Shown here: in pieces, positions 45,213 through 64,000 of the stretch | Layout of the letters: every line of letters starts with the position of its first letter | Numbering within the stretch: the first letter of the stretch is position 1 | Origin: an uncultured Bacilli bacterium | GTDB lineage: Bacteria > Bacillota_I > Bacilli_A > RF39 > UBA660 | Assembly: GCA_934141535.1 (NCBI GenBank) | Contig: CAKPCH010000006.1 | Coordinates: forward strand, 3,434 to 67,433 | Length of the DNA: 64,000 bases | Direction: 5' to 3' | Position numbers and translations under genes: made by a program | The notes under the pieces: model-generated | What the model was told of the DNA's origin: nothing | The model's database searches: none | The model's input: only the letters and a program-made list of their open reading frames with translations

Positions 45213-45479
45213 TTACATATTATTAAACATATTTCCTTGGCATCCACCACAATCATTATTAACTACTACATTTTCTTCATCACATGTATATTGTGGAGTA
45301 TAAGTATGTGTATATATATGTTTATTTATAACATGAGTATGTATTGGGCAGCAATGTTTTACTTCATGATGAAATTCTTTTTCTACACATTTAGTTATTG
45401 TAGGCTCCATAATTGGTTGTTCCATTATAGGTTGTTGTCTATTACACCCACAACCACAATTTCTATTAAAAAACATCAA
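45213..45479 (-). CDS. CotD-like Cys/His-rich spore coat protein
   Basis: 88 aa, His/Cys-rich (HHEVKHCCPIHTHVINKHIYTHTYTP), recalling B. subtilis CotD. Has an N-terminal CGCGC. Confidence 0.5.
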   Translation of the reverse strand: MMFFNRNCGCGCNRQQPIMEQPIMEPTITKCVEKEFHHEVKHCCPIHTHVINKHIYTHTYTPQYTCDEENVVVNNDCGGCQGNMFNNM

Positions 45480-47374: not shown

Positions 47375-47617
47375 ATGGTGTTTGTTATGAATAGATTAAA
47401 AGATTTAAGAGAAGATAATGACTTATATCAAAAAGATATTGCTAAAATACTTAATATATCTCAAACGGGATATTCAAAATATGAAACTGAGACAAATGAT
47501 ATACCTACAAATATTCTAATTAAACTTGCCCTATTCTATGAAACTAGTACAGATTACATTCTAGGATTAACAAACGAGAAAAAAATTCAATATAAAAGAA
47601 ACAATATAGTAAAATAA
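47375..47617 (+). CDS. XRE-family HTH transcriptional regulator
   Basis: 80 aa with a Cro/C1 HTH (LYQKDIAKILNISQTGYSKYE). Convergent with the HipA-like gene. Confidence 0.75.
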   Translation: MVFVMNRLKDLREDNDLYQKDIAKILNISQTGYSKYETETNDIPTNILIKLALFYETSTDYILGLTNEKKIQYKRNNIVK

Positions 47618-47647
47618 AGGCTTAAAAAAGTCTTTATTTTGTTTTTA
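47614..47647. terminator. Bidirectional terminator shared by the convergent HTH and HipA-like genes
   Basis: ATAAAGGCTTaaaaAAGTCTTTAT: a 10-bp stem with one G-U pair, an A-run before and a T-run after. Confidence 0.4.
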
Positions 47648-48803
47648 TAATGGTCTTTAATTTATTTATTCTACTTAATAATAAAGTACATAATTTATTA
47701 ATTCTTCTATCTGTCATTTTAGTAACACTTTGATATTTATGTAGTAAATTATCAAAATCTTCTTCTATTCCATCTAATTTAGATAAGTCAATTCTTTTTA
47801 TATCTTTTACTTTGGAAATAATTGAATCAAAATTATCTACTGTGTAGAAAAATCTTCCTTGACCATTTATAATTAATTCTTCATCATTATAATCTAAAAT
47901 ATTTAAAGATTGACCATTATCAAATATAGGAGCAATATCTAACCATCTTAAAGTATTAACATCTCTTATTACTCCAAAATTGTTTAAATGCCTGTCTTCA
48001 TTTAAAATTAAGTAGTCAAGAATAAACATATTTTCTAATTTTTCACGTACATCACTAATTCCTTTTTCTTCTAAAATATTAATATATTCCTCATATGCTT
48101 TTTCTTTTTCTATATTTTTATATAAGACTTGTTGTGCTGGAATTAATTCAGTATTACTATTAATAAAGCATTCACACTTAGAAACTACTTTTTCATTTAC
48201 AACATCTATAGTATATGTTACATGACAAAATCCAAGTTTTTCACATATCATACTTGCTAAAACTTCATTAAATGGTTGCATAACTTCATTTTTATAAGCT
48301 CCCTTTAATAAATACCTTTTATTATTTTCAATAATCCATGTTTTTTTTAATCTACCATCCGTAGTATTATTTGGAGATATTAAATTAATTTTTGTACTAG
48401 TGTCTAATTCATTACCAAATGTTGCATTAGTAAATTCTGAAGCATCAAAATCATGTTCAAAAAAATTTATATCATTATATTTTATATTAGAACCTGCTTG
48501 TTTTACCCAATATTGGTCAGATAGTGATAAGGCAAATGCTTTATCTAATAAGTCATCTGGTGAAGTAACATTTAATTTAGCAAGTAATAAATCTAAATCA
48601 TCTCTCCAAGATGGGATTCCCCTACCTTTAAACCAATCAGTAAGTATTGGTGTAATATCAATATTCTTAGAAAAACTATTATATATAATTAATGGAGCAT
48701 ATTCAATATTTTTAGTTTCATATATCTTAGTAAATACTTTTAATACTTCATTATATTCTGCAACTAATATTTCAGTATTTTTATTCATTAATATACATTT
48801 CAT
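47634..48803 (-). CDS. HipA-like Ser/Thr kinase (type II toxin HipA family)
   Basis: 389 aa. The C-terminal catalytic motifs match HipA_C (ILNEDRHLNNFGVI, then APIFDNG). Confidence 0.6.
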   Translation of the reverse strand: MKCILMNKNTEILVAEYNEVLKVFTKIYETKNIEYAPLIIYNSFSKNIDITPILTDWFKGRGIPSWRDDLDLLLAKLNVTSPDDLLDKAFALSLSDQYWVKQAGSNIKYNDINFFEHDFDASEFTNATFGNELDTSTKINLISPNNTTDGRLKKTWIIENNKRYLLKGAYKNEVMQPFNEVLASMICEKLGFCHVTYTIDVVNEKVVSKCECFINSNTELIPAQQVLYKNIEKEKAYEEYINILEEKGISDVREKLENMFILDYLILNEDRHLNNFGVIRDVNTLRWLDIAPIFDNGQSLNILDYNDEELIINGQGRFFYTVDNFDSIISKVKDIKRIDLSKLDGIEEDFDNLLHKYQSVTKMTDRRINKLCTLLLSRINKLKTIIKTK

Positions 48804-48899: not shown

Positions 48900-49844
48900 T
48901 TATTTAATAACATGTTTATCGGAAATAACCTCTGGATTTAAAATAATTATAGATTTAAGATTTTCGATTTCTTGTATCTGTTCTTTTAAACCTATCATTT
49001 CTTCCTTATTAGTTTTTATAGAAAGTAATTCATTATTGCTTTTTGTATTATCGTTTTCTAAATTATTTTTAAAAATTTTACCTGGTAATTCAATATGATT
49101 ATTATTCCAAAGCTCATTATTTTTCCTATCAACAATACACATATAATCTATTATATTCTCTTCAAAACCATTCATATATATAACGTTTATACTATCCGGT
49201 AGTGTTTCAACGGAATAATCATGAAAGCTTTTTGGAACTTTTCTTATTATATGTTCGCTATTTCTCATGATTGTACTTCTTAAAACACATGCTTCATAAG
49301 AAATGTTTTTATTTGTTGAAACAAACACAATTATATTTCTATAATTATTTTTTTTCAAATCTCGCAAACATTTTAAAGGTCCAACAGGTTCTCTCATACC
49401 CCATTCAATAATCATATTATATGAATTTTCTTTTCCCATTTCAATTAATTTATCAGTCATAGCACCTGCAAAAAAGTGGGTAAAATCAGCTATATCATTA
49501 CCTGGCGTATCATTTACAGTTTCTTTTCTATCTTTCCAATGTTCTTTAATACATTCTTCAATTTCTAAATATCTTGGATGATACATTCTATAATTATCTA
49601 TACCTATTTCAATTGCATTTTTTAACTCATTTTTTAAATTCATTGAAAGTACAGTTTTACCACTACCAGGTTGTCCACCTATAAAAATTGAATAAGGATT
49701 ATTTGTTGTAGAACAACCACGTTTTAAATGTTCAAATGCTAATTTACTAATTCTATCTAGTTCTACTTCTGTAAAACTAGATAATCTCATAACATCTTCT
49801 TTAGAATAACCTCTTTTTATCAAAGCTTCTAATCTACTATTCAT
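48900..49844 (-). CDS. Zeta-toxin family kinase (UDP-GlcNAc kinase-like)
   Basis: 314 aa. Walker A GGQPGSGKT and colinear matches to the streptococcal zeta toxin as I recall it (DNYRMYHPRYLEIE; FAGAMTDKLIEMG..YNMIIEWGMR). Confidence 0.85.
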   Translation of the reverse strand: MNSRLEALIKRGYSKEDVMRLSSFTEVELDRISKLAFEHLKRGCSTTNNPYSIFIGGQPGSGKTVLSMNLKNELKNAIEIGIDNYRMYHPRYLEIEECIKEHWKDRKETVNDTPGNDIADFTHFFAGAMTDKLIEMGKENSYNMIIEWGMREPVGPLKCLRDLKKNNYRNIIVFVSTNKNISYEACVLRSTIMRNSEHIIRKVPKSFHDYSVETLPDSINVIYMNGFEENIIDYMCIVDRKNNELWNNNHIELPGKIFKNNLENDNTKSNNELLSIKTNKEEMIGLKEQIQEIENLKSIIILNPEVISDKHVIK

Positions 49845-50082
49845 TAATAATTTCCTCTATTCTATTTATAGTATACATAATTATTTTTTTATAATTATTA
49901 ACTTTATTTATTTCACTACATATTCTAACCTTATCTTCATAAAAAGTAAGTTCACTAAGTAGTTTTTTTAGTTCTAAATTATTCTCTGATTTATTTATAC
50001 TTAAAGCAAATATATTTTCACAATATTCTATAATACTTTCCTTCATAACATTAATATTCATATCATCACCATTTTTATACAA
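49837..50082 (-). CDS. Candidate epsilon-like antitoxin for the zeta toxin
   Basis: 81-aa predicted helical protein directly upstream of the zeta gene and overlapping it by 8 nt. No detectable sequence signature; assigned by position only. Confidence 0.4.
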   Translation of the reverse strand: MYKNGDDMNINVMKESIIEYCENIFALSINKSENNLELKKLLSELTFYEDKVRICSEINKVNNYKKIIMYTINRIEEIINE

Positions 50083-50105: not shown

Positions 50106-50411
50106 CTATTCTATATCTAAATTCATATCACCATTATTAATTTTATCTACTACATCCTTTAATTTTGGTTGCAATTCTTTCCATTCTTCATTAGCATATC
50201 CCATGTAATATACATCTTTTATTTGATCATGATTAAATAATAAATTTTGATCTGATCTAATAACACCTGCTGGATAAATACAACCTATGTAATCAAACAT
50301 CTTATCTCCTGATTCTTTTCCCTTAGCTGCAAAACCTATAATCATAACTTTTCTTGTAGCTTCTTTAAGTAAGCACACAGTACCTATTGGCAAATATTTT
50401 TCTTTATTCAT
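50106..50411 (-). CDS. DUF4176-like protein (T7SSb-associated)
   Basis: 101 aa with the N-terminal KYLPIGTVCLLKEATRKVMIIG pattern typical of DUF4176 proteins found in LXG/T7SSb toxin loci. Confidence 0.55.
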   Translation of the reverse strand: MNKEKYLPIGTVCLLKEATRKVMIIGFAAKGKESGDKMFDYIGCIYPAGVIRSDQNLLFNHDQIKDVYYMGYANEEWKELQPKLKDVVDKINNGDMNLDIE

Positions 50412-50439
50412 TATTATTCTCCCTTAACTCTTATTAAAC

Positions 50440-50817
50440 TCATAAATGTTTAGCCTCAAAAACTTCGGTTGGTTTTTCTCCTTGTAAATATAATCTATAC
50501 TCCTCGTCTGAAAAACCATACTCAATAATGTTTGATGGAATATACATCATTTTAGCTAAAGCAACAATTATAGCATTTTTTGTAAATGGACCATTCACCA
50601 ATAAATTAAATCTATCATCAACACGATAAATATACCAATTATTATTTTTATTATAGCATCCTATTGCACCTGGCTTGTTTACACAATTATTTATAAATAA
50701 ATTATCAGGTTCTATTTTCTCGTCAGGGTTTTCTAAGTTGTATAGATAAATATACCTTCCCAAAATATTTCTTATTTCTAGTTCTTCATTTTTTATTTTT
50801 AAATTTTGTTCTTCCAT
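50440..50817 (-). CDS. Candidate immunity protein for the upstream polymorphic toxin
   Basis: 125-aa cytoplasmic ORF immediately downstream of the toxin gene (18-nt gap). Assigned by position only. Confidence 0.4.
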   Translation of the reverse strand: MEEQNLKIKNEELEIRNILGRYIYLYNLENPDEKIEPDNLFINNCVNKPGAIGCYNKNNNWYIYRVDDRFNLLVNGPFTKNAIIVALAKMMYIPSNIIEYGFSDEEYRLYLQGEKPTEVFEAKHL

Positions 50818-50835
50818 ATTTTTCCTCCTCTTTTA

Positions 50836-52605
50836 TTAAAATGTTATGCTTCTTAAATCAGTAATAATTCTAGCTCTTTTTAGTGTTCCAAATGAAAATA
50901 TTGAATTCATTTGACCTGCTTCTCCATCCATTTTAACTGATAAAGTTGCCCAAGAAGCTGCTTTGCCTGAATACCCATATTTAGATTGTTGGTTTGGTTT
51001 TAAAACTTCATTTAATCCACCATTTCCACCTATTTCTGGAAGAGAATCAAATGAATTAAAATCTCTTATCATTGCTTCAGCAACTTCTTCAGAATACCCT
51101 AAATTCACTAATCGTCTGACTTTTGAAATATCATCTACAGTACCAGAGCAAACATCTATTGCCTCTATATATTTATTTCCATCAAATATACCTGCTGTTC
51201 CATTAGATGAAGACGATGGTAAACTTCTTTGTGAAGATGTTGATTCCCAATCAGTACCTAACGCATGTCCTCCATCACCGCCTACTCTACTAACTTTTAT
51301 TTTACCATCTGGGTAAGAATCTATTAAAGTTTTAAGTGATCCAATAGTCTCTGGATCATATCCAGCATGATCAGGCCATTTTAAGTTAAAATTAGCTGTC
51401 TTGTACTCAGAATTATACCCTTCGAACTTAATAAATTCAGCTGCATTTTTGCTAGTTATAAGATCGTATGTTTTTAAATTACTTTTAAAATATTTATTAT
51501 CACTATTTTCAACAACACTATATACTTGTTTACTACTCAGGCTTTCAAAACGTCTTTGTAATTCTTGAATACTTTTAGCATCAAGATTTTCCATATTATT
51601 TATATTATCATAAACTTTCTTATAATTATTATATCCTTTAATACCATTATAACCAGTACTAACTCCACCTATTGTACCTGCCATTGCAGTTTGTAATAAA
51701 GCACCAGATTTTTTATAATAATCCCAAAATCCATTATATAATAGATTCCCGTTTTCATCAACAACATCTTCTCCATAAGTAATATATTGAATACCTGAAT
51801 TTAAAACTGGTTCTGCTGCTGATACTCCAGCTCCAGCTAATGTATATCCAACTACACCAGCAAGAGAAGTAGCACCTTTTGCTGCCACTTGAACTTCTTT
51901 TAATGCCCCTCCAGATGCTGCTCCTATAACTCCTGCCACAGTTCCACAAGTAAATGCTTGATCAAAATTTGCTCCACTACTTAGTGCCATTTCTGAGGCA
52001 CTTCCTGCTGCAGTAACAGCTCCTACTGTTGCAGTTACTACCGCTCCACCTGGCACACATGAAAGAGCAATATAAGCTGCCGTTGTTCCTACCATACTAC
52101 CAGCTGTATGAACCCAACTATGGGCTATATCTTGATCTACTCCTTGAAATTTTATTGCTTCATCATAAAGTGCTTCAGTCCAATCATATGCAACTACATT
52201 ACCAGTACTTTCTTTAATTTCTAAAGCTTTATCTTCATCCCAAATAGATACAACGCCACTTGCTATAGCACCACCAGCCATAATCAGGGCATCTCCAACA
52301 TTTTCTACTAATTCCAAAACACCAAAAGTAAGAGAAGTTTGAAATGTTACTCCATAATCTCTTATTGTTTTTAGAACATTGAAAGCACTCTCATACCATT
52401 CTTCTTGATCAAGTGATTTTGCTTTTTCTATTGACTCTTCTAAATCAATTTTATTATAATCTATATCTTCATATTTATAATAATTATCTGAGTCTATTTT
52501 AGAATCACTATAAAATTTATTTTTAAATACATTATTAGTATTATTAGCTTTAACATTATAAGATTTAACGCTATTTAATTTTATTGCTGTACTTCCAAAA
52601 TTCAC
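50836..52605 (-). CDS. Polymorphic toxin-like secreted protein with Gly/Ala-zipper hydrophobic segment and C-terminal putative toxin domain
   Basis: 589 aa. GTG start at 52605 with an AAGGAA RBS 7 nt upstream. Residues 100-280 form a G/A/S/T/V-rich stretch with repeated small-xxx-small spacing. The C-terminal 200 aa are globular (KWPDHAGYDPETIG...VSRVGGDGGHALGTDWESTSSQR). Confidence 0.55.
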   Translation of the reverse strand: MNFGSTAIKLNSVKSYNVKANNTNNVFKNKFYSDSKIDSDNYYKYEDIDYNKIDLEESIEKAKSLDQEEWYESAFNVLKTIRDYGVTFQTSLTFGVLELVENVGDALIMAGGAIASGVVSIWDEDKALEIKESTGNVVAYDWTEALYDEAIKFQGVDQDIAHSWVHTAGSMVGTTAAYIALSCVPGGAVVTATVGAVTAAGSASEMALSSGANFDQAFTCGTVAGVIGAASGGALKEVQVAAKGATSLAGVVGYTLAGAGVSAAEPVLNSGIQYITYGEDVVDENGNLLYNGFWDYYKKSGALLQTAMAGTIGGVSTGYNGIKGYNNYKKVYDNINNMENLDAKSIQELQRRFESLSSKQVYSVVENSDNKYFKSNLKTYDLITSKNAAEFIKFEGYNSEYKTANFNLKWPDHAGYDPETIGSLKTLIDSYPDGKIKVSRVGGDGGHALGTDWESTSSQRSLPSSSSNGTAGIFDGNKYIEAIDVCSGTVDDISKVRRLVNLGYSEEVAEAMIRDFNSFDSLPEIGGNGGLNEVLKPNQQSKYGYSGKAASWATLSVKMDGEAGQMNSIFSFGTLKRARIITDLRSITF

Positions 52606-52619
52606 ATTATCATTCCTTA

Positions 52620-53897
52620 CTAACTATGTCCAACAAAATCCCCTATCTTTGTTTCAGTAGTTTTATATGAATCTACTTTTATACTAGAATTTTTTATATT
52701 TCCTAAGTTTATCTTAGTATCATCTTCTTTTATATCTACATTATCATTTAAATTAAAAGTACTATTATCTTTAAAATCTATATTAGTAGTTTTTGTATCA
52801 TAATTATTTATATTATTAGTTAAATTATTTAAATCTTTATTATATTTATAATTAATATTATTATCACCACTTGAATAACTAGTTACATTATTTTTTATAT
52901 TATTAAAATCATCATCAATTTCAAATAGTATATCTTTTCTTTTTGCTTGAGTTTTATTAACATTATCAGTTAAACTATTTATATCTTCTAAATCTATATT
53001 ATTTATTGAAGTTGATTTATTAGAAATAGAATTTATATTATTATTAAGCCCTTTAATATCTTCTTCTTTTAATTTATCAATAGCCGTATTATTAGTCATA
53101 TAACTATTTAAATTATTATTTATTCCTTTAATTCTTTCTTGTTTACTAAATTCTATATTATTGTTATTCTGATAACTATTATTAATATCACTTGATAATT
53201 TATTATTTACTTCTATGTTTTTATTTATTTTATTATCCACTGTATTTGATATGGATAAAGTACGATCTAAATCTTTTTTCATAACTCTCATATCATTTAA
53301 TTTCCAATTATAATTAGATACTTTTAAATCAAACTCATATCCTTTTTTTCTTGTTAATCTAAATCTTGAATTATATAATTCATTATTAATACTTCTAGTA
53401 AAATTATCTATTGTATTTAATAAATTACTAGTTAATTTTTTTATATTTTTTATCTCATTTCTTAATGTATAGATAAGATTTATATTTTCAAAATCTGTAC
53501 CAAATTTATTTATATTTATATAATTTAAACTATTATTCATAAGTGCGATTATATTATTTAAATTTCTTTTACAATCATTAATTTTATTATCGTCAAATTT
53601 AAAAGTTGTAAAGTTTCTTTTATATCCATATTTATAGCATATATTATCTATATTATTTTTAAATGTTTCTATTTCTGTATATAATCCATCTAAATAATTA
53701 AAATAATTATTTAATTTATACTTATCTTTTTTTACCTTATCTAGGAATGAATATGAATTTGTATCATTCCATGAATTTTGTGTATATGAAAGTCCTCTAT
53801 ATACATAAGATAAATCGTTTAATATATTTTTTTTATAGTATCTATATCTATCTATATTATTGTTTATATTAGGTATATTTAGTTTAAAATAAGTCAT
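52620..53897 (-). CDS. Asn-rich low-complexity protein of the T7SS substrate operon
   Basis: 425 aa, about 25 percent Asn, predicted helical/coiled-coil with no TM helix. Has an AGGTGAT RBS and is preceded by a 71-aa helical ORF. Confidence 0.45.
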   Translation of the reverse strand: MTYFKLNIPNINNNIDRYRYYKKNILNDLSYVYRGLSYTQNSWNDTNSYSFLDKVKKDKYKLNNYFNYLDGLYTEIETFKNNIDNICYKYGYKRNFTTFKFDDNKINDCKRNLNNIIALMNNSLNYININKFGTDFENINLIYTLRNEIKNIKKLTSNLLNTIDNFTRSINNELYNSRFRLTRKKGYEFDLKVSNYNWKLNDMRVMKKDLDRTLSISNTVDNKINKNIEVNNKLSSDINNSYQNNNNIEFSKQERIKGINNNLNSYMTNNTAIDKLKEEDIKGLNNNINSISNKSTSINNIDLEDINSLTDNVNKTQAKRKDILFEIDDDFNNIKNNVTSYSSGDNNINYKYNKDLNNLTNNINNYDTKTTNIDFKDNSTFNLNDNVDIKEDDTKINLGNIKNSSIKVDSYKTTETKIGDFVGHS

Positions 53898-53905
53898 TAT
53901 ATCAC

Positions 53906-54121
53906 CTACATATTACCTATTTTAGGTATTATTTTATTATTTAAATTACTGATTTGATTATTTATTTTATTATTTATTGTATTAATTGAATTAGTACAAA
54001 AAGTCTCATTGTTTATAATTATTGAATCAGCTAATATTTTTTTTACTTCATTTAAATTGTATTTAGCACTATTTAAGTTTGCTTTAACCCTTTTCATATT
54101 TCTTATTAATTCATCATTCAT
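53906..54121 (-). CDS. Small helical protein (candidate T7SS substrate chaperone/adaptor)
   Basis: 71 aa, predicted single helical hairpin, GGAGAAG RBS. Its stop overlaps the RBS of the next gene. Confidence 0.4.
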   Translation of the reverse strand: MNDELIRNMKRVKANLNSAKYNLNEVKKILADSIIINNETFCTNSINTINNKINNQISNLNNKIIPKIGNM

Positions 54122-54199
54122 ATTATCTTCTCCATTTTTAGATAAAGGTTATCTTTTTATAACAGCCCTTATCTAAAAATAGTAATAAAATTACTATTT

Positions 54200-54934
54200 T
54201 TAACTCCATCTTGAAGAGCCTAAATCATTTAATGAAGCATCTACATTACTGCTAGCTTGAGTAAATTGTTCTTTAATATCGTTTGTAGCACCTATATAAC
54301 TAGTTCCAGCTAATGCATCTAAAGCATCATTCATATCTTTAATAGCAATTGTAACTTCTGCTATAGCTCTACCCACTTGTTCTACATATGCTTTTATACT
54401 AGAAGTTTGTTCTCCAAAGAAAGCTTGATTTGCATCTATTTCTTGGAAAAGTCCTTCTGTTTTCTTTTTGATTTCACCAACAAAAGATACAACTGCCTCT
54501 TGAATAGCTGTTTTACTTGAATTATCTTTTAAACCTCTATCATCAGAATTACCTATTGTTCTTATTCTAGGTTTAATTATTTGTTCATTTTTATCTACTC
54601 TTGGTACATCTATTTTAAATCTTCCTTTACCTTCTGCCATACTTCCATCTAATGTATTTCTTTGTTGAAAATCATACCAAGATTGAGCCAAACCTGCTAT
54701 TGTATTTAAACAATTTTCAGTTAAACTAGAAGCATTTACATAAAGAGTGCAAATACGTGTTGCTAAATTTTTTTCAAAGCTTTGTTCATCCTCTCCTACC
54801 CAATTCTCTTGAAGAACATTTGCCACACTATTCCATTGTTCTCTTGTATAAATTCCTAAATTTTTATAAGCACTTGCTATTTTATCCATTAAATCATTTG
54901 CTTGCTTTACATTATAACCTATTGCGAATGCCAT
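54200..54934 (-). CDS. Extended WXG100-like protein (candidate T7SS substrate)
   Basis: 244 aa. Residues 40-55 read LQENWVGEDEQSF, which matches the EsxA W-x-G loop (AANWEGQAFSRF in S. aureus EsxA as I recall it) at the same distance from the N-terminus. A helical C-terminal extension of about 140 aa follows. Confidence 0.5.
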   Translation of the reverse strand: MAFAIGYNVKQANDLMDKIASAYKNLGIYTREQWNSVANVLQENWVGEDEQSFEKNLATRICTLYVNASSLTENCLNTIAGLAQSWYDFQQRNTLDGSMAEGKGRFKIDVPRVDKNEQIIKPRIRTIGNSDDRGLKDNSSKTAIQEAVVSFVGEIKKKTEGLFQEIDANQAFFGEQTSSIKAYVEQVGRAIAEVTIAIKDMNDALDALAGTSYIGATNDIKEQFTQASSNVDASLNDLGSSRWS

Positions 54935-54946
54935 ATTCTTACCTCC

Positions 54947-55249
54947 CTATAAAATATTAGAATTCATATGATTAATTTGTGATTTTAAATGTTGATCTTG
55001 ATTTATATAACTATACTTAACTAAATAAAGTATATCCGAATAATTTTCTATCATTTTTGATATGGTATCTATATTTTTTTTCTCTTTCTGTGGCTCAATA
55101 AAAAGAAATTCTAAACTAGTACCACTATAACATTTATCTAATTCATTAATAGTTTCTATTAATTTAGTCTTACTTGTATTAAATGAATTAAGATACATAT
55201 TATTTTTTTTTATAAGTGAATCTATATTATCAACATTAACACCTATCAT
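54947..55249 (-). CDS. Small helical protein, first gene of the substrate operon
   Basis: 100 aa with a GGGAGGA RBS. Starts just after the esaB terminator. Similar in size to WXG100/Lap-type helpers but contains no Trp. Confidence 0.4.
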   Translation of the reverse strand: MIGVNVDNIDSLIKKNNMYLNSFNTSKTKLIETINELDKCYSGTSLEFLFIEPQKEKKNIDTISKMIENYSDILYLVKYSYINQDQHLKSQINHMNSNIL

Positions 55250-55362
55250 ATAATCCTCCCAAGTAGCATGCTTTCTCTTACTCTTGCTACTATAAAAATT
55301 ATAGATTAATTATATGTCGTTTTTGTTGCTTAACCTATATTGGAATATGATATGCCTATTTT

Positions 55363-55388
55363 GGTATAAAAAAAGGCTTAAAGCCTTT
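55363..55388 (-). terminator. Intrinsic terminator immediately downstream of esaB
   Basis: Minus strand: AAAGGCTT-ta-AAGCCTTT followed by TTTTT. It separates essC-esaB from the substrate/toxin genes. Confidence 0.55.
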
Positions 55389-55389
55389 C

Positions 55390-55644
55390 TTAAATTAATA
55401 TTAATTTTTTATCATTTTTTATGTTTGTATCTCTAATTATTAATGATATATCATAAACAAGTGAAGTATCGGGATCTAATAAATAATGTTTTTTATCTAA
55501 ATCAAAATTTGAATCTGATAGTTCATATACTGATTTTAAAATAAGTTCTAAAACTTTATTTACCGTTTCATTAGTTGGAATATATATTTCATAGTACTCA
55601 TCAATATTAGGAATATATACATTAACAAGAACCTTATTCTTCAT
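55390..55644 (-). CDS. esaB: YukD/EsaB-like ubiquitin-fold protein
   Basis: About 85 aa from the Met of MKNKVLVNVYI. The beta-grasp pattern and C-terminus (IIRDTNIKNDKKLILI) match B. subtilis YukD (GITNGDRLEIL) as I recall it. Immediately downstream of essC. Confidence 0.65.
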   Translation of the reverse strand: MKNKVLVNVYIPNIDEYYEIYIPTNETVNKVLELILKSVYELSDSNFDLDKKHYLLDPDTSLVYDISLIIRDTNIKNDKKLILI

Positions 55645-58600
55645 CTTCTCTAACCTTCTTCCCAACTATCTTAATAAGTTCTGCTTCACCATTTTTAGCA
55701 ACCCATGCATATTGTTTATCGATAACCTCTTTAAATCTATTATTATAATCGTTACAACTTATAACAGTTTGTTCTATAAATCCATTTCCTACCCATATAC
55801 CATTAGAATTATTAGTAATATCAGAATACCAATTCTCAAAGCTAACTTTCTTTAATTTGAAACTAGAATCTACAAATAATAAATTAACATTTGGTAGTGT
55901 TTTTATTCCTTTAAAGAAACCATTAAATTTTTTATCATTCATACTACCTTGAAATTTTTCAAGGCCTGCTATTATACATAGTACCTTAACATTTTTTCCA
56001 TCTATTTCTTTATCTAGAAATTGTTCAAATCTAAGTATAAATTCTTCAAAATTTTTATCAGCATACGTATTAACAGTTCCACCTAACTCTACTAATTCTT
56101 GTTCTGTATCTATTAAAACTACCATGTTACCAAGTTTTCTTGTTCCATATATTATAGTTTTTAATAAATCAATGCAACTTTTAACATCTTTAGAACTAAT
56201 AATGGTTGCTTTATCATTAAAGAAATTATAACCCATTACTTTTAAATTACGTTTTATCATACCTATTGGTAAATTATTAATGTTAGTAATAGACGAATCT
56301 AAATCCTCAATTGTCAATTCTTCTTTTAGTACAGGAATACTAGGAGCACTATTTTTACTTACTTTTAATACTTGATTTATTCTATTTTTGACAAACTCAA
56401 CTAAATTATCCTGATTAGTAACTTGAGCAGTTTGAAACTCATAAACTTCTTCATTTCTATAAAGTCCTCTACCATCATATGATGCTGGATATACATTGCC
56501 TATTTTTCCTAATATATCAATATAATCACTTTTATCTGGCATATCAAGTACAAAAGTATGATTAAAATTGCGTTCTATTTTACTATATATACTATGAGAA
56601 TTCGTAGCACTTATTATAAATATTATTCCATATCTTTCTCCTTCACGAGTAAGTTTAATTAATATATCTTCCAAAGAAGAATAAGACTCCTTAAATGAAT
56701 CATAATTATTTATAATAATTAATTTTATAGGTACTCTTTTACCACTATTTTTTATATAGTTTTTATACTCTCCATTATAATCAGCAAATAACTTTTTACG
56801 TTCTTTTATTTCTTCATTAATAAGACCAATTAGTTTTAATAATTTATCTTTTTCACTAGCATATACAATATCTCCAACTTGTGGAAATTTTTCATACATT
56901 CTTAACGATTCACTACCAAAGTCTATAATATATATATTTATATCGCCTGCTAAATGTTTTATACATAAAGAATATATTATAGATGATAAAAACATTTCTC
57001 TATTTGTACCAGATGATCCATATACTAAAGTATTTGCCTCATCATTTAGTTTAAGAGTTAATATATCTTGATATTGTTTAGATGGTGCATCATACTCTCC
57101 TATAATCGCCTCAACTTCATTTGATTTAAAATTATATTTATTTATAATATCATCAACATATATATCTTTTTCTATAGCATCCAACCATAAATTTTTAGTC
57201 TTTATGTTTTCTTTATTAGCTAAAGTACATATATATTTCATTATATTTGATAATTCATCACCATTATCTACTTTTTTAACTTCCTTAGTGTTTGCTACAT
57301 TTTTAATTACTTGACCTACATTATCTATTATTGATATTGATCTGTCATATTTTTTCTTTACCTGATCAGTAGCAAAATATGGCATACCAGCATACCCAGA
57401 TTGACCTAAAACAAATATTTCATCATTACCAACCTGAAGATAAAATCTACCTGCATTAGTGATATCTGCTGCTTCCGGACGTTTTAACATTTCATGTGAA
57501 TCTGATTTGTCTTGAACTTTTAGACAAACTCTAAATTTAGTATTTGACCAAATTTGATCATTAACAACACCACTTGGTTTTTGTGTTGCAAGTATTAAAT
57601 GTACACCAAGTGATCTACCTATACGAGCAGCTGAAATTAAATCATCCATAAATTCTGGTTGCTGTGCTTTTAATTCAGCAAATTCATCGCTTATTATGAA
57701 TAAATGTGGCATAGGTTCTTTTATTTTGCCTTCTCTAAAAAATTTCTGATATTTATATATATCTATTGTACTTTCTCCTAGTTTATCTCTTACTTCATTA
57801 AATACTTTTTGTCTTCTCTTAAGTTCACTATCTATACTTACTAAAGTTCTATTTAATGAAGCTTTATCTAAGTTTGTTATAGTACCTGCAAGATGTGGTA
57901 ATCTATACCCTTGAGTTTTATTTTCAAAAGCACCTGCAAGTCCTCCACCTTTGTAATCTATTAAAATAAACGCCACTTCATCAGGACTATAATTGATTAT
58001 CATGGATAGAATATACGTTATTATAAATTCTGACTTACCACTTCCTGTTGTACCTGCTATTAAGCCATGTGGTCCATGATACTTTTCATGCAAATCAAGC
58101 CATATAGGATTTCCTTCATCATTAATACCTACTTGAGCCCTTAATGACTTCATAGGATTATTAAGCCTCCATCTATTAAGGGCATTTAATTGTTCTACCT
58201 TACCAACATTATACATTTCTAAGAATCCTAAAGATGTTGGAAGTGATCTTAAATCTTCTACAAATTCTATTGGAATATTTGATAAAGTCTTAATACAATT
58301 TATCATGTTTATATTTGGATTTATTTCTTTAGTAAAACCTTGCTCATAATAATTATCCTTTTGTGTTGAAAGAATAGCTGCATTTCCTTGAAGTGATATA
58401 AAATTGACACATTCACTAGGCAATTTACCAAGTCTATTTTCAATACAAATTATACTAAAACCTAAATTTTGCTTATTATTTAAAATTTTATCAATAATAC
58501 CTATCTTTCTTATCATAGGATAATCATCCGTAATTATTAAGTAATATGGAGAATATGTATTATTTTCCTGAACTTCATTTTCAACTACATCAGCACTATC

Positions 58601-60220
58601 TTGAAGAGCTCTGTTAATATATTCTTGTTCTAGATATGAACTAATATATTTAATATCTTCTATATTATCTGCAAAAAATCTAATTTGTTTATTATTGTTA
58701 AAGCAATGAGGACAGTCTTTATATTTTTCCCAAACTGACAAATTCTTTTTATTTATAAAAAATATTATTTTCAAATCATCATAACTATGAAATGTAAGTA
58801 ATTGTAAAAGTGCATTATCAGTAAATGCTGATGATTCAATATCTTGACCCATAATAGCAGTAACGTTTTTATTATTAAACGAATAACCTATAGGAACATT
58901 CTTAAGTATTTTAGATTCATTAATTAATTTTTCTAGTGAACTTTTTAAATTATCCTCTTCTTCCATTGTAAAATCTTCTTCATTAAAATTAACATTTAAA
59001 TCAAGAGGTAAAGACCCACTACCTACTCTTATAGTTAAAAAATCTTGTTGATCATTTCTTCTTTCCCATAAGTTTCTTTTTTTATTTATTATTATATTTT
59101 GACATTCATCAAGTGTTATTAAATTTTCTTTCAATATCTGAGTTTGTTCAACAGAGACATTATAGATTTCTTTTTTCTTTCTTTCTAAATATTGACTATA
59201 CTTCTTTTGCCTTTCTTTTTCCTGTTTTTTTTCTAATCTTTTTTGATATTTTCTTGTTAAGTTAGGCCATAAGAATGAAGATAATAACATGGCTACACTT
59301 GTTATAAGACCAGATAAAGATTGTCCTAATGTTTGTTGCCTAGAAATCAATTTAGATAATGTATTTATAAGAGTTATAACCGAAGTAATTCCCATTGTAA
59401 GTGCTGGACCGAGTGTTAATAAAAGAGGCATTTCTTGTTTTTCATGTTTCTTAGGTGGTGGTGTTACTGTGAGTTCATATGTCTCTATGAATCTTCTAAG
59501 TCTAGGTTTCTTAAAAAAATAATCTTCATCTTTATAAAAATCAATTTCCTTTACTGTATCACTATCTGGTATTGGTGATTGTACTTTCAAATCTGATTCA
59601 AAAACAGCTTCGACAAATGAATTATTTAATGTAACAAAATTAGAAGGATTATTTATAGAAATCATACCATTCATTAAAGTTATTCTTAATCCTAAAATAA
59701 AAATAGCATCCCCATTATTAAGCTTTGCAGTTAATCTTGTTAATAAATTATTGTTAACATATATATTTGATTGTTGTTTTATATTTATAATCCATTCATT
59801 GTTAATAAAATTAATTATAGCATATTCATTAAATATATAAGAATTATTATATATAATATCACTTGTTGTATCTCTACCAACTACTAATTTAGTATTATTA
59901 TTTATTTTATAATATTTAATTGTACTATCATAAAACTCTTCTATATACAAAAACATTTTAGTATTATTATACTCTAAAAAATAGAAATAGTTTGGTTTTA
60001 AAATAGTGTGATCTATATATGCATTATTAAAAATAATTTTAGTATCATCATTATTCTTCATGACCCAATTATTATCTATTGCTTCTATATTTATTATATT
60101 TGCATTATTATTTAATTCGTCAACTAACCAGAAACTTCCTTCTATTTTTTGTGGTAGTATTAATTTTTGTAACCTATTTTTATTAAATAAAACTAAACTA
60201 ATAGCACTCATAAACAGCAT
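55634..60220 (-). CDS. essC: FtsK/SpoIIIE-family type VII secretion ATPase EssC/YukB
   Basis: 1528 aa. Two N-terminal FHA-like domains, TM helices around residues 260-310, then three FtsK-type ATPase domains. The first has a canonical Walker A, HGLIAGTTGSGKSE. Confidence 0.9.
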   Translation of the reverse strand: MLFMSAISLVLFNKNRLQKLILPQKIEGSFWLVDELNNNANIINIEAIDNNWVMKNNDDTKIIFNNAYIDHTILKPNYFYFLEYNNTKMFLYIEEFYDSTIKYYKINNNTKLVVGRDTTSDIIYNNSYIFNEYAIINFINNEWIINIKQQSNIYVNNNLLTRLTAKLNNGDAIFILGLRITLMNGMISINNPSNFVTLNNSFVEAVFESDLKVQSPIPDSDTVKEIDFYKDEDYFFKKPRLRRFIETYELTVTPPPKKHEKQEMPLLLTLGPALTMGITSVITLINTLSKLISRQQTLGQSLSGLITSVAMLLSSFLWPNLTRKYQKRLEKKQEKERQKKYSQYLERKKKEIYNVSVEQTQILKENLITLDECQNIIINKKRNLWERRNDQQDFLTIRVGSGSLPLDLNVNFNEEDFTMEEEDNLKSSLEKLINESKILKNVPIGYSFNNKNVTAIMGQDIESSAFTDNALLQLLTFHSYDDLKIIFFINKKNLSVWEKYKDCPHCFNNNKQIRFFADNIEDIKYISSYLEQEYINRALQDSADVVENEVQENNTYSPYYLIITDDYPMIRKIGIIDKILNNKQNLGFSIICIENRLGKLPSECVNFISLQGNAAILSTQKDNYYEQGFTKEINPNINMINCIKTLSNIPIEFVEDLRSLPTSLGFLEMYNVGKVEQLNALNRWRLNNPMKSLRAQVGINDEGNPIWLDLHEKYHGPHGLIAGTTGSGKSEFIITYILSMIINYSPDEVAFILIDYKGGGLAGAFENKTQGYRLPHLAGTITNLDKASLNRTLVSIDSELKRRQKVFNEVRDKLGESTIDIYKYQKFFREGKIKEPMPHLFIISDEFAELKAQQPEFMDDLISAARIGRSLGVHLILATQKPSGVVNDQIWSNTKFRVCLKVQDKSDSHEMLKRPEAADITNAGRFYLQVGNDEIFVLGQSGYAGMPYFATDQVKKKYDRSISIIDNVGQVIKNVANTKEVKKVDNGDELSNIMKYICTLANKENIKTKNLWLDAIEKDIYVDDIINKYNFKSNEVEAIIGEYDAPSKQYQDILTLKLNDEANTLVYGSSGTNREMFLSSIIYSLCIKHLAGDINIYIIDFGSESLRMYEKFPQVGDIVYASEKDKLLKLIGLINEEIKERKKLFADYNGEYKNYIKNSGKRVPIKLIIINNYDSFKESYSSLEDILIKLTREGERYGIIFIISATNSHSIYSKIERNFNHTFVLDMPDKSDYIDILGKIGNVYPASYDGRGLYRNEEVYEFQTAQVTNQDNLVEFVKNRINQVLKVSKNSAPSIPVLKEELTIEDLDSSITNINNLPIGMIKRNLKVMGYNFFNDKATIISSKDVKSCIDLLKTIIYGTRKLGNMVVLIDTEQELVELGGTVNTYADKNFEEFILRFEQFLDKEIDGKNVKVLCIIAGLEKFQGSMNDKKFNGFFKGIKTLPNVNLLFVDSSFKLKKVSFENWYSDITNNSNGIWVGNGFIEQTVISCNDYNNRFKEVIDKQYAWVAKNGEAELIKIVGKKVREDEE

Positions 60221-63310: not shown

Positions 63311-64000
63311 TTACCTACCTTGCCATACATTTACTACATTAACATTACTTGAATGAGGTTCTGGATTTGGAAGTGGCATTTTTATAATCATTGGAACCTT
63401 AAATGCCCTACCAAAAGCTACGCACATACCAGGTTGCAAACTTTTTTGCTTTTCCATTATTTCAGCACTCATATTAGGTAACATTTTTTTAATATACTCT
63501 AAATCTCTTGGATGTGTCATTTTAAATATTAGAAAATTACTTATCTGAGATATAACTGTTTCTGAAAGTTCAACAGGACGTTGTGATACTAAATTTAATA
63601 TAAGTCCGAACTTTCTTCCCTCTTTTGCTATACGTTCAAATATATTATAACCAAGTAAGAAATTATCTTGATCTTGTTGAACATATCTATGAGATTCTTC
63701 TAATAGTATATGAAATGGTACTGCACCTCTATTTGAAAGATGCTTAGTAAAATCAAATAACATCTTAGAATATATCTTAACTATTGTTTTAGCAAGTCTA
63801 TCATCTATATCCTCTAAATTAAAATTTATAATTTGAGATTTTCTATTATTTTTAGCAACTAAGCTTGCTACATATTGAGGAAGAGTTACATAAGTTGGAT
63901 ATTCAAAATAATCTCTTGCATCACTTATAGCAATCGAATGAAGTCTAACTTTTAAAGTAATAGCTTCATCATACAATTTATTATTTCTTAAAAATCCATC
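63311..64000 (-). CDS. HerA/FtsK-like (DUF87) ATPase, C-terminal portion; 5' end lies beyond the window
   Basis: The frame stays open to the window edge. The ORF-track Met is actually TTG, and upstream codons continue without a stop. The C-terminal region (GLILNLVSQRPVELSETVISQISNFLIFKMTHPRDLEYI) resembles the DUF87/HerA ATPase C-terminus. Confidence 0.5.
   Translation of the reverse strand, partial: DGFLRNNKLYDEAITLKVRLHSIAISDARDYFEYPTYVTLPQYVASLVAKNNRKSQIINFNLEDIDDRLAKTIVKIYSKMLFDFTKHLSNRGAVPFHILLEESHRYVQQDQDNFLLGYNIFERIAKEGRKFGLILNLVSQRPVELSETVISQISNFLIFKMTHPRDLEYIKKMLPNMSAEIMEKQKSLQPGMCVAFGRAFKVPMIIKMPLPNPEPHSSNVNVVNVWQGR

Follow-up and report, generated by a model that had tools for sequence, protein, structure and literature searches.

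Within a 64-kb stretch of DNA from an uncultured Bacilli bacterium (the window, that is, the whole stretch that was analysed), the feature under study occupies positions 50106-60220 on the minus strand and combines the gene of an EssC-type ATPase of type VII secretion systems (T7SSs), an adjoining gene for a YukD/EsaB-like protein and, behind a terminator-like hairpin, a set of substrate and toxin genes. Followed from 60220 down to 50106, the locus holds these features:

55634-60220, minus strand: essC, a membrane FtsK/SpoIIIE-type T7SS ATPase of 1528 amino acids (aa; TIGR03928, FtsK_SpoIIIE)
55390-55665, minus strand: yukD/esaB-like ubiquitin-fold gene, 91 aa from a TTG start, overlapping the 3' end of essC
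55369-55391, minus strand: terminator-like hairpin and T-run directly after yukD and before the substrate genes, from reading and folding the sequence
54947-55249, minus strand: 100-aa WXG100-related, Lap1-like helical protein, with YSG at residues 41-43 in the place of WXG and YxxxD at 81-85
54200-54934, minus strand: 244-aa single-chain double helical hairpin, candidate EsxA equivalent, with WVG (45-47), FFG (172-174), Y213 and W243
53906-54121, minus strand: 71-aa helical helper, Lap2/DUF5344-like candidate (weak DUF5344 match, E 0.027), its position kept in seven loci
52620-53897, minus strand: 425-aa protein, its first ~200 residues WXG-like and helical (SWND at 42-45), with a variable Asn-rich tail (21% Asn)
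50836-52605, minus strand: polymorphic toxin of 589 aa, conserved over residues 1-330 and variable at the C-terminus
50440-50817, minus strand: 125-aa immunity candidate, with homologs at 81.6% and 40.6% identity that follow toxins with the same C-terminus (L022 and L023)
50106-50411, minus strand: gene of the DUF4176 chaperone family (Pfam PF13780, E 2.4e-25)

The original prediction, made from the sequence alone, had described a T7SS-type secretion and toxin locus, and this description stands, with EssC, the YukD-like gene, the DUF4176 gene and the toxin-immunity pair all confirmed. A check against the list of open reading frames (ORFs) found all nine genes on the minus strand, exactly in the order and with the coordinates and sizes first proposed. 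The window has a GC content of 24% and nearly all of its genes lie on the minus strand; the operon is densely packed, with overlapping genes, and ffh does abut essC, 99 bp upstream of it. The widest non-coding gap within the locus, after the 91-aa gene, measures 140 bp, and since no gap there exceeds this length, no small membrane ORF is concealed between the listed genes. As for the internal terminator that had been proposed, a hairpin with a 10-bp stem and a T-run is visible in this gap and folds at -9.6 kcal/mol (z -2.2), but a consensus terminator scan did not call it.

EssC itself matches the NCBIfam equivalog TIGR03928 (T7_EssCb_Firm) over its full length (970.9 bits against a cutoff of 778.4, model positions 5-1294 of 1296) and Pfam FtsK_SpoIIIE at 1e-38, so that the proposed ATPase is both real and intact. 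The three ATPase domains are likewise present, but the FHA domain reaches 20.6 bits in Pfam, marginally under the 20.7 cutoff. The architecture comprises this FHA-like N-terminal region, two predicted transmembrane (TM) helices (~264 and ~305) and the three ATPase domains, the first of which (D1) carries a canonical Walker A motif (GTTGSGKS at 723) and a Walker B motif, the second (D2) being degenerate. The nearest structure in the PDB is that of B. subtilis YukB (9qks, E 1.6e-119), to which the alignment begins only at residue 305, implying that the FHA/TM part is highly divergent. An exact-sequence look-up of the window EssC returned no record.

Relatives of the locus were gathered in two ways: a genome scan with EssC, run over one genome per GTDB species, provided 21 loci (L001-L021), and exact look-ups with precomputed Pfam annotation provided eleven more (L022-L032), giving 32 related loci in which ~10 kb on each side of each essC were read. 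The loci of the scan all come from uncultured gut metagenome-assembled genomes (MAGs) labelled Bacilli, Erysipelotrichaceae, Tenericutes or Clostridiales, with EssC identities of 35-77%. A protein search retrieved at least 120 further clusters, at 90% identity, of ~1520-aa EssC, which are 42-99% identical, all metagenomic, and named by NCBI as EssC of 'Bacilli bacterium' or 'Mycoplasmatota bacterium'. Across this EssC clade the D1 region is 79-91% identical, and the existence of so large and intact a clade argues for function. The window and the 32 loci together hold 34 essC genes (35-99% identity), at 31 of which a YukD-like gene detected with hidden Markov models (HMMs) overlaps essC or lies within 23 nt of it; of the three others, one sits on a 2-kb fragment and two belong to the most distant loci, which have a higher GC content. 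When the ORFs of the window and the first 21 loci were clustered, only the EssC and YukD-like families were common throughout, and no family with predicted TM helices was common to the loci. The flanks of essC vary from locus to locus and consist of housekeeping genes (ffh, rpsF-ssb-rpsR, infB-rbfA, rplM-rpsI, murA, thiI, secE-nusG, an ABC/FtsX fusion, VanZ and SpoU). As the same layout recurs with such varied flanks, compactness is the property of a large clade and no accident of one genome. The barest case is that of a spore-former (L028), in which EssC, an 83-aa gene and two Pfam-positive ~98-aa WXG100 genes stand among housekeeping genes. Another relative (L011) has two EssC-YukD pairs ~4 kb apart on a 14-kb contig (1407-6249 and 9960-14114) with no other core gene, the first pair being followed by a zinc phospholipase C-like gene.

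The product of the 91-aa gene is, judging from the sequences of its relatives, a divergent member of the YukD/EsaB family. Taken alone, the window copy gives weak ubiquitin-like matches (Pfam PI3K_rbd and TUG-UBL1). The assignment is made because, among 20 family members from related loci scanned singly, five match Pfam YukD (PF08817, best E 3.2e-9) and most of the remaining hits were to ubiquitin-like families; it is thus at the level of the family that the gene foreseen here as YukD/EsaB is recovered. A PDB profile search with the family found nothing, YukD included. The conserved start is probably an ATG that gives a protein of ~84 aa.

Around these two genes, the membrane partners of EssC known from T7SSb, the type of S. 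aureus and B. subtilis, are missing: the pseudokinase EssB/YukC, the polytopic EsaA/YueB of ~1000 aa and the small EssA/YueC. ORF reading and HMM scans revealed nothing resembling EssB, EsaA or EssA in the 64-kb window, where ORFs were read by eye from 75 aa upwards in 30-49 kb and from 100 aa upwards in 1-30 kb, and where 30 ORFs were scanned: the ten of the locus with Pfam and NCBIfam, ten flanking ones with Pfam, and ten further membrane or unassigned ones with NCBIfam, whose library holds T7SS models. Nor was any EssB/YukC, EsaA/YueB or EssA/YueC found at the 32 related loci, within ~10 kb either side of essC, and the precomputed Pfam tables of eleven of them (L022-L032) contain no YukC, EssA or EsaA. 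The absence noted in the original prediction therefore extends from the window to the related loci. At these loci, the only large polytopic neighbours of essC are the ABC/FtsX fusion (L012) and housekeeping transporters; VanZ, SpoU, the same ABC/FtsX fusion and phospholipase C were considered as membrane partners near distant relatives and rejected.

We consider that the locus is probably a self-contained, reduced T7SS with one toxin cassette. The initial description had left the choice between a membrane core encoded elsewhere and a streamlined system, and the absence of EssB, EsaA and EssA from the window and the 32 related loci favours the streamlined option over an ordinary split locus, without settling the matter, as the inspected flanks span ~10 kb. 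Under the split-locus explanation, EssB-, EsaA- and EssA-like proteins, or non-homologous membrane partners, would be encoded elsewhere and the compactness would be a matter of gene arrangement. It draws on the essential role of EssB, EsaA and EssA in the T7SSb studied so far (PMC12637312), on the FHA-like N-terminal domains that EssC retains and on the ~10 kb per side to which the inspection of each essC was limited. However, none of the 32 loci, in their many genomic contexts, has such a gene nearby, and all T7SS types described so far keep their core genes in a cluster with essC (PMC11217815); moreover, EssC, YukD and WXG genes have moved as a unit among unrelated housekeeping neighbourhoods, and the locus with two EssC-YukD pairs has no other core gene. 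On balance, we find the split locus unlikely.

The reduced, self-contained system that we favour would have its own substrates, in which the WXG100 class is probably present in diverged and fused forms. No protein of the window reaches a WXG100 model in Pfam and NCBIfam scans, and Pfam-positive WXG100 genes are present in three relatives (L010, L028, L032). The 100-aa protein, first taken for a helper, is by HMM a probable WXG100 relative: the HMM of its family matches the Pfam-WXG100-positive 96-aa proteins of L032 (E 2.5e-7 and 3.6e-6), and in the family alignment (A10, full-length numbering) G43 and Y81 are invariant and D85 is kept in seven of eight members. Since the position of its YxxxD matches that of the FxxxD of Lap1, which is required for the export of LXG toxins (PMC9600955), Y81-D85 may be read as an export motif.

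The 244-aa protein had been called an extended WXG100-like protein; its WXG100 type remains probable, and it is better read as a fused pair. Its family forms 57 clusters among 5.8 billion proteins, none with a Pfam domain. In full-length numbering, W-x-G (45-47), Y213 and W243 are invariant in it, and residues 172-174 make up a second turn of the aromatic-F-G type. AlphaFold2 (AF2), run on a 35-sequence alignment, modelled two WXG100-like helix-turn-helix units with the WVG and FFG motifs located in the turns (predicted local distance difference test, pLDDT, 86; predicted template-modelling score, pTM, 0.80). Homology links the family to F11, a gene of 212-227 aa found next after yukD in L007, L009, L014 and L020 (hhalign probability 96.7%, E 4.5e-10), and at the same place other loci have a 205-aa protein with two WXG motifs; one of these proteins matches Pfam WXG100 at 34 bits. 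Weaker links also exist: three of nine members of the 244-aa family give weak WXG100 matches, hhalign to the double-WXG family F9 is weak (probability 26%), and with the two Pfam-positive single WXG100 proteins of L028 hhalign brought the WXG motifs into register but reached no significance. Two identical (100%) 204-aa double-WXG genes flank essC in L022 (1800-2414 and 8903-9517), one of them between infB and rbfA.

The first ~200 residues of the 425-aa protein make up a comparable domain, homologous to the F12 family of other loci (hhalign probability 92%, E 5e-7), and the Asn-rich tail is missing from the copies in L004 and L006. One relative (L030, 15904-17857) encodes the counterparts of the 244-aa protein and the N-terminal part of the 425-aa protein in the same order as separate genes of 89-116 aa, an IS66 transposase standing between yukD and these split WXG-type genes. 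There, a 101-aa and a 116-aa gene match positions 4-93 and 146-236 of the 244-aa profile, in order (E 9.2e-5 and 2.8e-6 in a database of ~650 proteins), and an 89-aa and a 97-aa gene match positions 3-83 and 87-173 of the F12 profile (E 2e-10 and 3e-5). Fused and split forms thus correspond piece by piece, and because canonical WXG100 proteins are ~100 aa long, a fusion of separate genes is easier to assume than a split. Both the 244-aa protein and the N-terminal 200 residues of the 425-aa protein resemble a pair of WXG100 hairpins joined in one chain, and the former is probably the EsxA equivalent. The lack of a canonical EsxA consequently needs rewording: a Pfam-positive EsxA of ~100 aa is indeed absent, but with a probable divergent 100-aa relative bearing YxxxD and with probable fused pairs at the locus, 'no EsxA' becomes 'no conventional EsxA'. 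As for the 71-aa helper, DUF5344 is one of the Lap-type families encoded beside LXG toxins (PMC12482557, PMC9600955).

The toxin cassette has the features of a polymorphic toxin with its immunity gene. All 23 homologs of the 589-aa protein are alike over residues 1-330, with many invariant glycines, and diverge after this point; one of them carries Pfam TNT at its C-terminus. Homologous toxin C-termini are followed by homologous genes of 112-125 aa and other C-termini by unrelated genes, and it is this covariation, the signature of toxin-immunity pairs, that makes the 125-aa gene an immunity candidate. At the level of sequence, the toxin/immunity pair and the DUF4176 gene proposed at the start are both borne out. 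In streptococci, DUF4176 proteins bind and stabilise the pre-toxin and toxin regions of LXG toxins (PMC12482557), which fits the position of the gene here.

The C-terminal domain of the toxin (residues 386-589, window 50836-51450) is met again at the C-terminal end of proteins from 42 representative clusters that differ widely in length. This family (P0201-P0241) has no Pfam model, invariant R, R, E and Q residues, and a helical insert of ~70 residues. One protein that carries it, the distant P0231, begins with a sub-threshold LXG match (22.6 bits against a cutoff of 26.5), and a relative of the toxin (P0002) has a helical extension of ~270 aa fused to its N-terminus. On the protein of the window, no match to Pfam, NCBIfam or the PDB was obtained with the full length, nor to Pfam or the PDB with the C-terminal domain and its 16-member profile, and neither the 589-aa nor the 425-aa protein matches LXG (PF04740). 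By eye, the C-terminus has motifs resembling those of TNT (SR.G, QR..P and GG.GQ, with invariant R/R/Q), but formal tests were negative: the idea of a TNT/NADase toxin domain found no support in any HMM or profile test, hhalign to a Pfam-TNT-positive C-terminus giving a probability of 2%. Structure prediction with AF2, proposed for this protein at the outset, yielded a usable helical N-terminal part, a multi-helix bundle at residues 66-335 with pLDDT 70-80, but a C-terminal domain with pLDDT below 50, and Foldseek with the model returned nothing significant. A fusion of the 425-aa and 589-aa genes by read-through or frameshift was also rejected, each gene having its own stop, ribosome-binding site and start and the frames being different in the window.

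Directly downstream of the T7SS genes, several relatives have giant ORFs of ~1,600 to more than 2,850 aa that run off the end of the locus (L005 17707-24552; L008 10394-18067; L014 19766-24541; L015 8459-17014; L024 17934-24563). These may be very large T7SS substrates; the one of L024 carries an ADPrib_exo_Tox domain. Genetic code 4 was considered for ORF-poor stretches in some loci and rejected, these stretches being such giant ORFs running off the locus ends.

Could the locus instead be a decaying remnant, that is, a former T7SSb whose membrane partners were lost from a reduced genome and whose secretion has ceased? The AT-rich genomes concerned (24% GC), labelled Bacilli, Tenericutes or Mycoplasmatota, suggest reductive evolution, which speaks for this idea. 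Yet essC, at 1528 aa, is unbroken and keeps canonical Walker A and B motifs in D1, its clade counts at least 120 full-length clusters with a strongly conserved D1, toxin C-termini and immunity genes diversify and co-vary, and the operon is tightly packed with overlapping genes, so that we regard decay as very improbable. That the ATPase belongs to a conjugative or DNA-translocation system rather than to protein secretion, for which the FtsK/SpoIIIE fold shared by EssC and weak sub-threshold matches to TraB, TrbC and TraD might be cited, is effectively refuted, given a full-length EssC equivalog match far over its cutoff when FtsK scores 64 bits against a cutoff of 1566, the YukD, WXG100-type and DUF4176 genes and toxin-immunity pair that adjoin essC, and a window in which ORF reading and HMM scans found no relaxase, VirB4, VirD4, type IV secretion or other transfer genes, which removes this alternative.

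Within the reading of the locus as a self-contained reduced T7SS, a more specific proposal can be made, to which we give an even chance: EssC and the YukD-like protein would form a complete type VII translocon, a minimal natural T7SS fed by single-chain WXG100 pseudo-dimers and widespread in uncultured, genome-reduced gut Bacilli. The reduced T7SS as a whole has antecedents in the literature: in B. subtilis, EssC/YukB is described as the central component of the channel and YukD as a factor for its assembly (PMC12637312), and T7SS variants without EssB, EsaA or EssA exist (PMC11217815). We infer from the gene content of this reduced T7SS that EssC, presumably as a hexamer, would form both the membrane channel and the motor, with the YukD-like protein, translationally coupled to it, acting as its assembly factor and with no use made of EssB, EsaA or EssA. 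The 100-aa WXG100/Lap1-like protein would supply the YxxxD export arm, and the 244-aa protein, packing both hairpins of a WXG100 dimer in one chain, would engage the ATPase domains of EssC. Joined by the 71-aa Lap2-like helper and by the fused hairpin pair in the first 200 residues of the 425-aa protein, these would form a pre-secretion bundle of four helical proteins that is recognised by EssC and carries the 589-aa toxin. In the producer, the toxin would be kept in check by two proteins, the DUF4176 chaperone that holds it and the 125-aa immunity protein that counteracts it. At the target cell, the Gly/Ala-rich helical domain of the toxin may insert into the membrane and deliver the variable C-terminal domain. 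The analysis itself shows the identities of the genes, the compact arrangement throughout a large clade, the correspondence of fused and split forms and the covariation of toxin and immunity gene; the sufficiency of EssC and YukD, the roles of the single helical proteins and the activity of the toxin are inferences.

Several points weigh against the reading of the locus as a self-contained reduced T7SS. In S. aureus and B. subtilis, none of EssB, EsaA and EssA is dispensable, and with an inspection of ~10 kb on each side of essC, partners could lie farther away in every member. EssC keeps FHA-like N-terminal domains, and such domains bind EssB in T7SSb; the clade has not kept the canonical Arg of FHA. 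The organism is walled, as its FtsW, sortase and D-Ala-D-Ala carboxypeptidase indicate, and the locus has no EsaA-like conduit through the wall. The WXG100 homology of the window proteins consists of family-level HMM links, motifs and predicted fold, with no direct Pfam match. Finally, all relatives are MAGs, and every function proposed here is read from sequence.

If EssC and YukD did form a complete translocon, then EssB, EsaA and EssA (EccB, EccD and EccE in actinobacteria) would be lineage-specific accessories outside the basic mechanism. The locus thereby addresses a standing question, namely which protein is the channel of the Firmicute T7SS and which parts are truly needed, and the compact layout across a large clade suggests that the textbook set of parts is far larger than a T7SS needs in order to work. 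A natural EssC-YukD system would offer a two-gene machine to reconstitute and image, for which a single-chain WXG100 pair would serve as a simple model substrate. The clade is abundant in the gut metagenomes of humans, mice, rabbits and ruminants, and its toxins, with a non-LXG delivery domain and an unclassified C-terminal family, would add an unstudied layer to bacterial competition in the gut.

As regards the neighbourhood, the window also contains a zeta toxin with a small partner, a HipA-like/XRE pair, an HD-domain protein, FtsW, a sortase, ffh, an rsgA-prkC-prpC-rlmN cluster, a polysaccharide synthesis cluster, histidine kinases and a D-Ala-D-Ala carboxypeptidase. The Zeta_toxin gene (Pfam 4e-30) and its upstream partner of 73-81 aa directly follow the DUF4176 gene in four loci (window 48900-50082; L004 20338-21484; L022 13349-14435; L023 7878-9057), including L022, whose essC shares just 39% identity; the two genes apparently move together with the toxin cassette. 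At 47375-48803 of the window lie a HipA-like kinase gene (sub-threshold HipA_C and HipA_2 matches) and a divergently oriented XRE-family helix-turn-helix gene, and together with the zeta pair they mark the stretch downstream of the T7SS as variable and rich in toxin-antitoxin modules. In close relatives, a protein of ~580-620 aa, a HerA/DUF87-like ATPase by eye, is encoded a few kb from the T7SS genes (window 63311-63976, partial; L001 6208-7962; L003 5344-7092; L016 15400-17271). The partial window copy has no Pfam match, and in the distant L016 the gene directly follows the double-WXG gene; its proximity is probably a matter of shared synteny. A small Cys/His-rich protein of 85-88 aa, CotD-like by eye, is conserved between the window (45213-45479) and L003 (20198-20455), where it is encoded near the T7SS region.

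Compared with known systems, the locus shares with T7SSb (Ess of S. aureus; YukE-YukD-YukC-YukB-YueB-YueC of B. subtilis) an EssC equivalog built from an FHA-like N-terminus, two TM helices and a set of three ATPase domains, an adjoining YukD/EsaB-like gene, DUF4176, Lap-like helpers and a polymorphic toxin followed by an immunity gene. It differs by the lack of EssB/YukC, EsaA/YueB and EssA/YueC in the window and the 32 related loci, by the lack of a ~100-aa Pfam-positive EsxA in the window, by a toxin without an LXG domain and by the first ~300 residues of EssC, which do not align with YukB. Because three defining components of T7SSb were tested for and not found at the locus, we do not file it under this type. 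The substrate genes in turn recall the LXG/Lap1-Lap2/DUF4176 modules of streptococci (S. intermedius Tel; S. suis LXG1-CT3), with small helical partners upstream and DUF4176 downstream, an aromatic-xxx-D export motif near the end of helix 2 (F77-D81 in LapD1, Y81-D85 here), and a middle 'pre-toxin' region ahead of a variable C-terminal toxin and then an immunity gene. Unlike in these modules, the LXG-like targeting domain and the toxin are here separate polypeptides with their own ribosome-binding sites, and no protein of the locus reaches Pfam LXG, DUF3130 or DUF3958. EspB, a substrate of the ESX-1 system (T7SSa), likewise joins a PE-like and a PPE-like hairpin in one chain and has WxG and YxxxD; however, sequence similarity to it is lacking, and the fold match is unspecific, apolipoprotein and Dps bundles scoring equally.

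The closest parallels may be sought among the eight non-a/b variants, T7SSc-j, that Garrett, Higginson and Palmer (2024) described from RefSeq genomes, some of them simple, and that all share an ATPase, a WXG100 protein and usually a YukD-like protein (PMC11217815). Like T7SSf and T7SSg, the locus has a core of a TsxC ATPase, a TsxB ubiquitin-like protein and, probably, TsxA WXG100 proteins without EssB, EsaA or EssA, and substrates encoded with small WXG100-related partners; the two WXG100 genes of L028 also resemble the A1/A2 arrangement of T7SSg. In the 'relatively simple' T7SSg (TsgA1, A2, B, C, L), TsgC has no FHA and always occurs with a DUF5050 propeller (TsgL) and Tad genes (PMC11217815), whereas an FHA-like region is present here and the flanks contain neither the propeller nor Tad genes. 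T7SSf is characterised by the PPM phosphatase TsfF, the DUF6382-FHA protein TsfJ and the AAA+ protein TsfV (PMC11217815), families that do not occur at the present loci, the only PP2C/PrkC pair of the window being, by reading, that of the housekeeping rsgA-prkC-prpC-rlmN cluster ~20 kb from the T7SS genes. Nor are fused double-hairpin WXG proteins described for T7SSc-j in that survey, outside of which the clade falls because it is known from MAGs only and the survey used RefSeq. Our literature searches met no description of this compact EssC-YukD variant. The claim of a system not described for T7SSb calls for qualification, since simple systems outside types a and b were already known (PMC11217815). 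On this basis, the locus is most likely a streamlined T7SS variant beyond the published T7SSa-j and, with eight non-a/b variants already described, one more variant rather than a new category.

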